Of a DNA stretch of 64,000 bases, positions 2,966 to 52,709 are shown one piece after another. The position numbers and the translations under genes were made by a program. The first letter of the stretch is position 1. Each line of letters begins with the position of its first letter. Under the pieces are notes generated by a model. The model saw only the letters and a list, made by a program, of their open reading frames with translations, ran no database searches and had not been told where the DNA came from. The stretch lies in NCBI RefSeq assembly GCF_058153355.1, contig NZ_CM177019.1. One strand, given 5' to 3'.

Positions 2966-4298
<1,333 letters not shown>

Positions 4299-4317
4299 AA
4301 CTTAGTTCGTTTTAAAG

Positions 4318-4342
4318 ATTCTGCAGACACTGTCTGCAGAAT
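4318..4342. repeat. Perfect 25-bp palindrome ATTCTGCAGAC-ACT-GTCTGCAGAAT between yhcH and the yhcG-like gene
   Basis: Read directly; same GCAGAC-N3-GTCTGC core as the three palindromes at 4829-4932. Confidence 0.9.
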
Positions 4343-4367
4343 TCGAAACCGCTGAAATTAACGGCGT

Positions 4368-5234
4368 CTATAGCCTTCCTCTAGCACCGCCTGTGTTCGA
4401 ACGAGTTCGGCGGTGGAAAAACAGCAGATCGACACGAAACCAGTTGTCATCAATGCGTAACCTTCGCTGCCGACCAACAAAGGCAAAATCATCCCCAAGT
4501 TCCAGCATTAAATCCATCAGGTGATTGATCAGCGCCTCCTCAAAATCGGATTCTGAGTATTCATCTTTCAATTCCAGAAATTCGAGCACAAAGGGATCGC
4601 GTATCGCCTGTTGCGGAAGAATATGCGTCTCGGCAGGAGCGTGTTGTTGCAGCATGGCTGATTTGTCATGTGACAGTAGTGTTCGCTCATAAAATTGGGT
4701 CGCAATTTGCCGCTCTAGCTGGCGGACAGACCAACCACAGCGGAGCGCCTCTTTTTCATAAAAGCTGCGGGCGTCAGCGTTTTTAACGGAAAGTAGACGG
4801 ACGTAGGTGGACCAAGGCAGGGGGAACGATTTGGCAGACAGCGTCTGCCAAATCTTTGCCGATGGGAATTCTGCAGACGGTGTCTGCGGAATTCCCAATG
4901 GTGTTAATTCGCCAGACACTGTCTGGCGAATTTCAACATGTTGAAAAAAGAGGTAAAAAAGCCTCATTTGGCGTAAGTTTTTTGCAGAGAACCCACGCTT
5001 ATACCTTAGACTTAAATCCTTTGATAGTCGCTTGATTAGCTGCGCACCATACGCAGCTCTGGCCTCGCCACCTTGTTCAAATTCGACAATTCGTCGGCCA
5101 ATTTCCCAGTACGTCGCGGTCATCAGCGCGTTAACGCTACGTACCGTTTCCGTTCGGGCGCTATCGACCAGATGAATAATGCCGTCGTGGATTTGCTGGT
5201 AGCCTGCTGTGGTTCCTTCTGAGAGCGATTCCAT
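4368..5234 (-). pseudogene. yhcG: YhcG-like DUF1016 (PD-(D/E)XK nuclease family) gene, apparently 3'-truncated and carrying an in-frame palindrome expansion
   Basis: 288-aa ORF with DUF1016-like N-terminal region (…TYWEIGRRIVE…, …NLRQMRLFY…, IWQTLSAK motif). It stops shortly after VDLLFFH, before the expected catalytic E-x-K segment. Only 69 bp separate its stop from the yhcH stop. Confidence 0.55.
4829..4945. repeat. Cluster of near-perfect palindromes inside the yhcG-like coding sequence (4829-4853, 4864-4896, 4906-4932, plus CAACATGTTG at 4934-4943)
   Basis: Read directly: TTTGGCAGAC-AGC-GTCTGCCAAA; GGGAATTCTGCAGAC-GGT-GTCTGCGGAATTCCC; AATTCGCCAGAC-ACT-GTCTGGCGAATT. Each unit encodes a variant of the IWQTLSAK motif in frame. 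Confidence 0.85.
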
Positions 5235-5417
5235 TATCTTTCCCTTTATATGGCGCAGTGTTGAATAATGGAATCAGCTATACGCCGGGCATCTGCCGGT
5301 AACAATCCAGATGTGCGTATTACATTGGTTTTCTTCAGATTATGCGAGGCGCTTTCCAGAACGAAAGGAGAATTTCAGCGCCGACTCTTTTCTGAGGAGG
5401 CGGCGCTGGGACAGAGC

Positions 5418-6848
<1,431 letters not shown>

Positions 6849-31125: not shown

Positions 31126-31353
31126 CTTTCCTCACTCCTTAAGTTAGTCGCTTTCATTCAGAACACTTCTTCTGTCGAGCATCACTATACTCCTGATGGC
31201 CTATTGCTCTAAAAAGTTCCTGTAAAGAGTGTGAATATTCAGAATATATAAAGATACATACACTGGTTTTTCAGGCGTTATTACGCTGAATAAGTGTTTT
31301 TATGGAACTTATTGGAATCATCCCGCGCACTGCGCGGGATGAGGGGGAGGGGA

Positions 31354-33173: not shown

Positions 33174-33198
33174 GTTTTTCGCGTCCCGGTAACGGATG

Positions 33199-33228
33199 AA
33201 AGCCCCGCAACACGTTGCGGGGCTTTTT
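33199..33228 (+). terminator. Rho-independent terminator after rpmA
   Basis: AGCCCCGCAA-CACG-TTGCGGGGCT followed by TTTTT. Confidence 0.8.
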
Positions 33229-33299
33229 ACATTCGATAACCGGTAAAAATTCGCATCGTGCGGCGTTAACTCGCAAATGCGTTTTGTAGGGAATACGGT

Positions 33300-52636: not shown

Positions 52637-52668
52637 GTGAACAGCCCTTCCACCTGAAATTAATTTTA

Positions 52669-52693
52669 AAAAGGGGCTAACAGCCCCTTTTTT
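52669..52693 (+). terminator. Hairpin with T-run just upstream of rbfA
   Basis: AAAAAGGGGCT-AAC-AGCCCC followed by TTTTTT. Confidence 0.6.
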
Positions 52694-52709
52694 GTCAGGA
52701 GAATTTATT

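Follow-up and report, generated by a model that had tools for sequence, protein, structure and literature searches.

An in-frame palindrome of the yhcG nuclease gene, expanded into a variable array in Escherichia coli and conserved as nucleic acid across the family

The yhcG locus and its palindromic units

The window analysed here is a 64-kb stretch of DNA (contig NZ_CM177019.1 of NCBI RefSeq assembly GCF_058153355.1) that carries, on its minus strand and between nanK–nanQ and gltD, a copy of the yhcG gene with three palindromic units in its reading frame. In Escherichia coli, this array is a strain-variable tandem expansion of one ancient palindrome that is intrinsic to yhcG-family genes. 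The open reading frames (ORFs) found near yhcG in the window are nanK, nanQ, gltD and gltB. The yhcG gene itself (4368–5234, minus strand) encodes a DUF1016_N domain and a YhcG_C PD-(D/E)XK nuclease domain and is a pseudogene in the window: the frame is shifted at 4408|4409 by the internal loss of 251 bp from the nuclease domain, a stretch that K-12, nearly all E. coli and all listed full-length matches from complete E. coli genomes retain. What was the C-terminal end can still be read at 4358–4408. The best E. coli match is only 99.0% identical. YhcG of K-12 belongs to the family, with DUF1016_N (PF17761) at residues 18–183 and the PD-(D/E)XK domain YhcG_C (PF06250) at residues 207–359, and this yhcG/DUF1016 family is the PADLOC candidate defence gene PDC-S02.

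The three units (4826–4934, minus strand) are 27–35 bp long and follow one another in frame with a 39-bp (13-codon) period, their starts being 39 and 39 bp apart; the stretch of yhcG that holds the unit or units is called below the linker. In gene order, unit 1 (4904–4934, palindrome 4906–4932) encodes IRQTVSGEL and reads AATTCGCCAGAC-ACT-GTCTGGCGAATT or, in the sense of the gene, AATTCGCCAGACA-G-TGTCTGGCGAATT, with 13-bp arms. Unit 2 (4863–4897) encodes IPQTPSAEF and reads TGGGAATTCTGCAGAC-GGT-GTCTGCGGAATTCCCA, with 16-bp arms that include a single mismatch and are laid out as TGGGAATTC-x-GCAGAC NNN GTCTGC-x-GAATTCCCA. Unit 3 (4826–4856, palindrome 4828–4854) encodes IWQTLSAKS and reads GATTTGGCAGAC-AGC-GTCTGCCAAATC. 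Scored with the covariance model R1, which was built from the units of the distant loci described in the next section, they reach 42.6 bits (E 3.6e-10), 33.4 bits and 39 bits, respectively. An earlier, sequence-only reading of this DNA had reported three near-perfect in-frame palindromes in a yhcG-like gene, each encoding a variant of one family peptide, and both observations prove real.

The core CAGACNNNGTCTG occurs four times in the window versus 0.04 expected, a count that was reached by none of 100 shuffles, and four of the only six odd palindromes of the whole window with at least 11 of 12 paired positions are yhcG units. When folded as a single strand, the array (4815–4945) forms three hairpins (z = −9.9 as DNA, −9.7 as RNA). 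A scan of the window with R1 retrieved only four matches below E 1e-6, i.e. the three units of the array and a fourth one located 3′ of the gene. Three weak matches (33196–33229, 40919–50 and 58190–230; E 0.06–0.9) are probably due to chance, and two further strong palindromes (31315–31345 and 52665–52695) resemble ordinary GC-stem terminators, the second, AAAAAGGGGCTAACAGCCCCTTTTTT, being followed by a T-run. Since the units are palindromes, the plus strand harbours at 4856–5035 an antisense open frame that would read similar peptides (MPMGILQTVSAEFPMVLIRQTLSGEF...). The additional perfect palindrome TCAACATGTTGA that had been listed together with the units is present at 4933–4944 (no strand), where it adjoins unit 1. 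It is statistically ordinary, as 15 perfect even palindromes of at least 12 nt are found per window and other alleles carry TCAACGCATTGA at the same site; being ordinary and allele-specific, it was rejected as a part of the unit system.

The fourth palindromic unit (4315–4345, minus strand; R1 39.7 bits) lies beyond the ORF: it falls in the 3′ untranslated region, 13 nt past the normal stop of yhcG. Read with the flank on its 5′ side, the window copy would give FQRFRILQTVSAES, which resembles the start of the linker, FQRIEILQTVSGES, and a stop-loss allele (P0019) reads through it as RILQTLSGES. The resemblance of its flank FQRFR to the linker start FQRIE makes this unit look like the leftover of a duplicated linker fragment, which it probably is. 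It is found in most yhcG-bearing E. coli genomes and is absent from Salmonella and Pseudocitrobacter. A role as terminator was rejected, as its stem lacks a following T-run. Both this fourth unit and the family-wide selection at the nucleotide level described below go beyond what the earlier reading reported.

In the protein, the units correspond to residues ~100–130. The DUF1016_N match covers 166 residues for a model of 137 positions, and the units therefore represent an insertion inside this domain. In the AlphaFold2 model, residues 100–130 are coil with a pLDDT below 50 and their flanks are confident helices; the unit-encoded peptide is thus predicted to sit in a disordered loop within the N-terminal domain. 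A search by sequence for solved structures retrieved none. In K-12, the stationary-phase non-coding RNA G0-10703 is divergent from yhcG and overlaps its 5′ region by 128 bp (PMC7967276), a position that is unrelated to the palindromes.

Among 5426 complete E. coli genomes, the yhcG locus is present in 4467 and unit matches occur in 4430, which are essentially the yhcG-bearing ones, at 1–6 places each (median 3, both strands). None of these matches is carried by a plasmid, and a 39-nt query taken around the fourth unit matched yhcG-bearing E. coli genomes only. The proposal that a miniature palindromic element had inserted in frame does not agree with these data: the unit is not dispersed but confined to the yhcG locus in E. 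coli and in the window, and it keeps the same position throughout the family. YhcG proteins of E. coli differ in length by 13-residue steps, and alleles with one, two or three units account for 165, 914 and 4387 sequences, respectively (counted as member sequences of 90%-identity clusters). At least six distinct junctions occur among the single-unit alleles (IRQTMSGELT|PLP, IRQTVSAKSF, IRQTASAKSF, IRQTVSGESF, IRQTLSAKFS and IRQTLSAKSL), which implies repeated independent collapses between unit 1 and unit 3. The number of units thus changes by recombination or slippage between units, and the array behaves as a hotspot of slippage or recombination, slippage having been suspected from its sequence. 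Salmonella, Citrobacter, Kluyvera and relatives carry one unit: orthologues do not all share the same three units, and the triplication that had been claimed relative to typical family members holds relative to close orthologues such as those of Salmonella and Citrobacter.

Larger changes also affect this part of the gene. Alleles of a second E. coli class (e.g. strain R32_14) are almost identical to the window except for a ~200-bp divergent patch around the units, which resembles Pseudocitrobacter. In strain SC487 (locus L001), unrelated DNA takes the place of all the sequence downstream of unit 3, the right junction falling exactly at the edge of this unit. The replacement (L001 3530–4001, ~470 bp) contains a 101-aa ORF annotated as 'transposase' (WP_000639208.1); the strain loses the C-terminal half to two thirds of yhcG plus the fourth unit, and the breakpoint is common to several other genomes (H27–H29). 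Strain E272 has an IS1 at the locus (L180 3802–4515), and its similarity to the window ends at ~4850, inside unit 3. An IS3-family insertion is located in yhcG of MRSN352231 (L181 4007–5220), ~60 bp upstream of the array.

Conservation of the unit across the family

A family search over 1.84 billion representatives retrieved 21,155 yhcG relatives, many of which display 0–5 IxQTxSxx units directly before an LSWSHY/FPLPWS motif. The nucleotide sequence of the unit was studied in a genome set of 80 distant yhcG loci (611 kb), whose proteins share 37–57% identity with YhcG and whose genes range from 27 to 70% GC. These loci originate from Bacteria and Archaea, including Cyanobacteria, Acidobacteria, Bacteroidota, Firmicutes, Verrucomicrobia, Woesearchaeota, Altiarchaeales, Methanomicrobiales and others. 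A second, independent set comprises 80 newly fetched viral-contig loci (875 kb), which brings the total to 160 loci.

The consensus of the unit is AATT-NNN-CAGACA-S-TGTCTG-N'N'N'-AATT, which in the frame of the gene is read as A|ATT|N5N6N7|CAG|ACn|nnG|TCT|G N7'N6'|N5'AA|TT. The peptides QTLS and QTVS correspond to the two orientations of one palindrome (centres ACT and AGT). The residues encoded by the two arms follow base pairing: Trp (TGG) is matched by Ala-Lys, Arg (CGC) by Gly-Glu, Val (GTG) by Ala-Gln, Leu (CTC) by Gly-Glu and Pro (CCG) by Ala-Glu, a rule that holds in E. coli, Salmonella and Pseudocitrobacter. The sequence AGACNNNGTCT occurs 72 times in the 611 kb of the genome set, 68 of these occurrences being in the linker; the three matches outside the called yhcG ORF belong to a tandem paralogue (L049), to a yhcG gene whose own ORF call failed (L029) and to an upstream mini-ORF (L027).

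Codon usage within the motif is strongly constrained. The Ser of QTxS is encoded by TCT in 77 of 79 units, whereas TCT is used in 10 of 64 cases for the Ser of WSHY, which is just as invariant, and in 19% elsewhere; its Thr is encoded by ACA in 65 of 79 (32% elsewhere) and its Gln by CAG in 65 of 79 (46% elsewhere). The arms outside the core covary. Among units chosen on the four core pairs only, 87% are complementary at d=7 and 93% at d=8, whereas pairing between different units amounts to 30%; both positions use all four bases, and d=6 shows a C-G/G-C swap in a ratio of 61:7. This core-only selection (d=6–8) is the unbiased test. The alignment of 86 units was selected for palindromy; in these phylogenetically related sequences, 211 cells are changed on both sides versus 59±7 in shuffles, and pairing drops from 92% to 21–44% once the partners are slid.

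At the level of whole loci, the best palindrome of the linker (window of 250 nt) pairs at least 10 of 12 positions in 64 of the 80 genome-set loci, versus 1–4 of 80 in three control windows of the same genes, and at least 11 of 12 in 41 loci versus none in the controls (Wilcoxon p 7e-14). Homologues that lack QTxS carry a palindrome at the same spot with another core; two of these palindromes are in another frame, and the arms of some reach 20–21 bp. The alternative cores include TACCCA-A-TGGGTA (encoding YPMGS), CAATCA-G-TGATTG, GAGACA-G-TGTCTC (ETVSR), CAGCAGCC-T-GCTGG and CTACACA-G-TGTGTAG. Paralogues present within one genome also differ in core (L014/L015 and L025/L050). Applied to the 80 viral-contig loci, R1 detected 61 distinct sites at E ≤1e-3, 58 of which are located in the linker of a yhcG homologue, across 53 loci. 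According to a script count, the exact 15-mer GCAGACANTGTCTGC has 94 matches in viral contigs, only seven of them near a YhcG-like ORF; the bare core therefore occurs elsewhere by chance and is not diagnostic without its arms.

Because synonymous sites are frozen and the NNN/N'N'N' positions of the arms covary, the object of selection is the nucleic acid; the peptide IxQTxSxE/K-F/L comes with it as a by-product that the disordered loop tolerates. Because the unit occupies the same position of the gene across Bacteria and Archaea, it is ancestral to the family and was not inserted.

Units are also found beside the gene in some lineages, although they are absent from there in most of the 160 loci. 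In Altiarchaeales (L027, 3560–3680), a mini-ORF of two units (MEYPKFQTVSGKFKYRIQKSQAPSHQL...) with its own Shine–Dalgarno-like sequence is located ~170 nt upstream of the yhcG start. One viral contig (L172) harbours near yhcG a small remnant that contains a unit, and in another (L189) ~75 nt of the linker of the gene recur as a near-exact copy. L022 and L187 contain gene fragments with the unit as one of their ends. In L223 (5912–5942), L071 (~3938) and L073 (~3939), a second unit with the same arms lies at the 5′ end of the gene, ~330–350 nt upstream; that of L223 is translated in a different frame (DIPDTVWNI). In these three loci, the segment for the first N-terminal helices is bracketed by two near-identical palindromes. 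The most complex arrangement was found in the uncultured bacterium LJ_bin-5039 (L012; CAIOLW010000134, 873–5967), in which eight R1 matches, seven of them extra, surround one yhcG. Five of these units each form part of a ~115-nt direct repeat, in which the unit is accompanied by a linker-like flank and by a second, GC-rich palindrome, GGACTTGCGCCGGCGCAAGTC. All these repeats are located upstream of yhcG in non-coding DNA and point in one direction, and their cores differ by compensatory changes. By its layout, this locus looks like the repetitive extragenic palindromes (REPs) that are associated with REP-associated tyrosine transposases (RAYTs), or like an array; its neighbouring genes encode NYN, MqsA-like and SNF2 helicase proteins. 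Given the copies found in several unrelated lineages, the unit is able to occur, to be duplicated and to be maintained outside the frame, always in the vicinity of its gene.

Nature and possible reader of the unit

Three features favour DNA over mRNA as the form in which the unit acts, without proving it. First, the base at the centre of the 86 units is C in 44, G in 37 and A or T in only 5, so that both orientations are about equally frequent; A and T are avoided although all four bases would encode Leu, Val or Met (CTG 34 versus TTG 2). Second, stem mismatches are G·T in 5 cases and A·C in 18, and G·U is absent, in all 86 units, from the two pairs that vary most. Third, complementarity reaches d=1 (enriched in A-T and G-C), a position that is unable to pair in a hairpin. 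As an element without strand asymmetry is probably not read as mRNA, the unit is regarded with moderate confidence, from these sequence features, as acting as DNA, i.e. as a single-stranded DNA hairpin, an extruded cruciform or a two-fold symmetric duplex site.

The alternative that survives best, an mRNA hairpin, nevertheless appears rather unlikely. The hairpin would be a site bound by YhcG or a different protein and controlling translation or decay, a site of RNase processing or ribosome pausing, or an RNA cofactor derived from the gene's own message. The RNA fold of the array is stable (−65 kcal/mol), a conserved stem top and loop above a covarying lower stem is the usual anatomy of protein-binding RNAs, all the extra copies near yhcG share the orientation of the gene and, in E. 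coli, the 3′ untranslated region contains the fourth unit. However, an RNA stem would be expected to tolerate G·U and to keep one strand of its loop, whereas G·U is not tolerated, the loop centre is C or G equally with A/U nearly absent, and the symmetry extends to d=1. In addition, the sequence that follows the stem is not terminator-like and no Rfam family matches: a scan of 3800–5800 (E up to 10) only returned chance-level miRNA models (E ≥1.3), far below their gathering scores.

If the unit acts as DNA, the question arises of which protein reads it. The site accompanies the gene in Bacteria, Archaea and mobile DNA alike, which makes a host-specific factor unlikely. The gene's own nuclease is the only specific partner that travels with the site, and paralogues of one genome carry different cores. 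NucS, resolvase-like and FokI-like cleavage domains work as dimers on symmetric or branched DNA. These points suggest, with low confidence, the gene's own product, presumably a dimeric PD-(D/E)XK nuclease resembling NucS or Holliday-junction resolvases, as the putative reader. Known E. coli operator motifs (MetJ box, LexA, CRP and others) were considered and rejected, as none is known to fit CAGAC-N3-GTCTG. The unit core contains GACNNNGTC, which is a known type II site and serves as a lead only.

Taken as a whole, the account in which the array is an expanded family palindrome that acts as DNA and is read by the gene's own nuclease has about an even chance of being right. A more specific version, which is put forward only tentatively, can be viewed as follows. 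By binding the site inside its own transcription unit, YhcG would keep its nuclease gene, which is horizontally mobile and potentially toxic, under its own control whatever promoter drives it. If the site were now and then cleaved, or its hairpin processed, this would account for the gain and loss of units, the long perfect arms of some lineages and the linker fragments found near yhcG. The gene and its ancient in-frame hairpin or cruciform site, read and sometimes cut by the encoded nuclease, would thus form a self-contained nuclease-plus-site module, with REP-like satellites in the LJ_bin-5039 locus.

Several points weigh against this account. The units used to measure covariation are related by descent, which inflates any significance based on shuffles, and the conservation of the core could partly reflect a hairpin constraint combined with some selection on Q-T-x-S. 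A flip-flop of the loop by recombination between the arms could equalise C and G at the centre without any symmetric recognition. A plain duplex operator needs no complementarity at arm positions that are not contacted, and a hairpin needs no symmetry at d=1, yet symmetry is enriched there; hence, neither simple form fits everything. Finally, a site that is cut by the product of the gene in which it lies is hazardous, and no protection mechanism is evident.

A second alternative, which seems improbable, is that the palindrome is a self-perpetuating by-product, i.e. a quasi-palindrome that intrastrand template switching and slippage keep symmetric, lengthen and duplicate in a mutation-tolerant loop, without any selected function. 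Such a process would account for compensated double changes that lack single-step intermediates, for the perfect 17–21 bp arms of some lineages (L034, L041, L066 and L083), for the flips of the centre between C and G in close alleles, for the unstable copy number and for the location in a disordered loop. However, template switching cannot fix one core, one position and one frame across Bacteria and Archaea at 27–70% GC. Moreover, palindromes are prone to deletion, yet at least 9 of 12 pairs are kept in 75 of the 80 genome-set loci, and the preference for CTG over TTG at the central Leu is observed although many of the sampled genes are AT-rich.

A slightly less probable proposal is that of a recombination module, in which the palindrome would be a break or joint site for in-frame exchange, conversion or rearrangement between diverged yhcG alleles and paralogues, thereby diversifying a defence gene. 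The mosaic patch of R32_14 is centred on the units, the replacement in SC487 and the end of similarity in E272 fall at or in unit 3, and gene fragments begin or end at a unit near yhcG in several lineages. In some pairs, the N- and C-parts of the protein are discordant in identity (for instance 51% versus 88%), as observed for L213 versus L228, L047 versus L074 and L261 versus several others, which indicates modular exchange within the yhcG family. Nevertheless, the clearest discordant pair (L213/L228) switches near residue 200 and not at the unit, a breakpoint that led to the rejection of the unit as a universal in-frame recombination joint. No inverted or swapped arrangement was found in the 160 loci; an intragenic inverton was likewise rejected, as the N- and C-parts are on opposite strands in 0 of 160. 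The 13-nt core is also short for homologous recombination, and the copies around the LJ_bin-5039 gene are not accompanied by alternative domain sequence.

It is very improbable that the unit is a REP-like or Rickettsia-palindromic-element-like miniature mobile element inserted in frame, or an assembly artefact. It is indeed translated in frame as Rickettsia palindromic elements are (PMC4316617), and the metagenome bin L012 has seven extra copies around yhcG. However, E. coli matches are restricted to yhcG-bearing genomes (4430 versus 4467) and never found on plasmids, the window matches are the four yhcG units, the position of the unit is constant across phyla and, in 577 kb of flanks, only three core matches lie outside the called yhcG ORF, all next to or inside other yhcG copies. 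As for an artefact, it is contradicted by the presence of the array in thousands of independent complete assemblies. Least credible of all is a repeat selected at the protein level, with palindromy of the DNA being incidental: the IxQTxS peptide is widespread, in one frame in 80 of 89 units, with Q, T and S as the most conserved positions, but its codons are frozen (TCT 97% versus 16–19%), its residue pairs obey base pairing, unrelated peptides (YPMGS, SQSVIG, ATQCVA, QQPAG) are found elsewhere with the palindrome still there, units also occur in other frames and outside ORFs, and the region is predicted to be disordered.

The account of a DNA site read by the gene's own nuclease thus remains the preferred one; it agrees with one suggestion of the earlier reading, that of a recognition site for a DNA-binding or restriction-like protein, which stays a candidate explanation. 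Searches of open-access papers and bioRxiv under DUF1016 plus palindrome, YhcG, PDC-S02 and the core sequences found no description of the element; in a paper on Rickettsia (PMC4316617), DUF1016 and palindromic elements are both mentioned, but in separate contexts. The mechanism behind the unit has a fair chance of being new. Across bacteria, archaea and viral contigs, the synonymous sites of this 13-nt palindrome are frozen at 27–70% GC, which strongly points to a function and offers the first concrete, testable handle on the family of yhcG, a widespread, uncharacterised nuclease gene and candidate anti-phage gene. If the nuclease reads a site in its own gene, a mobile, toxic gene would have a new means of bringing its control or its trigger along, and the nuclease-plus-site module would be a portable self-control or structure-sensing switch without described counterpart. 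More generally, conserved 'peptide motifs' in disordered loops can be the shadows of nucleic-acid elements.

Comparison with known systems

REPs are intergenic, are present in tens to hundreds of copies, have a GTAG/CTAC head and are handled by an HUH (Y1) tyrosine transposase, RAYT (TnpA-REP). Like REPs and the bacterial interspersed mosaic elements (BIMEs) that they form, the yhcG units are short (~20–40 nt) imperfect palindromes that are specific to the nuclease gene that they flank and whose arms undergo compensatory changes, and the L012 copies cluster around the nuclease gene. Unlike them, the unit lies inside a coding frame, has a PD-(D/E)XK partner and is normally present in 1–5 copies in that gene only. 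Its consensus, nnAATTTnnCAGACACTGTCTGnnAAATTnn, has no GTAG, and it does not occur as many dispersed intergenic copies. Units that flank the gene are found in E. coli (1), L012 (7), L027, L189 and L223, but not in most of the 160 loci.

Rickettsia palindromic elements are protein-coding palindromes (Ogata et al. 2000, 2002, as cited in PMC4316617). In both cases, palindromic DNA is translated in frame in structurally tolerant regions and leaves the host protein intact. However, these elements are mobile, 100–150 bp long and inserted in many unrelated genes of one genus, whereas the yhcG unit is 27–35 bp long, belongs to one gene family and one position and is common to domains of life, which sets it apart from this class.

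The attC sites of integrons are recognised as folded single-stranded DNA. They resemble the unit in that structure is conserved while sequence varies, and a copy located 3′ of the ORF (the fourth unit) as well as the array-like L012 locus extend this resemblance. Unlike attC sites, the unit has neither R/L boxes (RYYYAAC/GTTRRRY) nor extrahelical bases, and its main copy is inside an ORF; moreover, no integron integrase is encoded in the window, so that the unit does not belong to this class.

Quasi-palindromes of E. coli are mutational hotspots at which, in the template switching model of Ripley, imperfect inverted repeats mutate toward perfect complementarity by copying one arm from the other. 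Compensated double changes and long perfect arms such as those of yhcG units would follow from this copying, but such hotspots are not known to be conserved, whereas the position, core and frame of the unit are kept family-wide. The comparison with structured RNAs is also mixed: covariation is strong, yet the mismatch bias (G·T 5 versus A·C 18) and the near-equality of C and G at the centre differ from it.

In TnpB/IscB, the scaffold of the guide RNA overlaps the 3′ end of the gene as a long asymmetric RNA, within a transposon. In both cases, a cis element lies within the coding sequence of a nuclease that it may serve and is inherited together with it; in contrast, the yhcG unit is a short symmetric palindrome located mid-gene, with signs of acting as DNA.

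The 12-bp repeat of EcoR124I/II HsdS, which encodes TAEL, is an example of an in-frame repeat in a restriction or defence gene that varies in copy number. Both repeats have a length of 3n, a copy number that varies among strains and a position as spacer between functional parts of a protein of a nuclease system; unlike the yhcG unit, TAEL-type repeats are not palindromic and are not known to be conserved at synonymous sites across phyla. The unit lacks defining features of REPs, of Rickettsia palindromic elements and of attC sites, and possesses those of the generic polymorphic in-frame tandem repeat (coding variable number tandem repeat): a 39-bp period, 1–3 copies and several independent junctions. 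As such a natural coding copy-number polymorphism, the yhcG array of E. coli can serve to mark strains and to report on palindrome instability.

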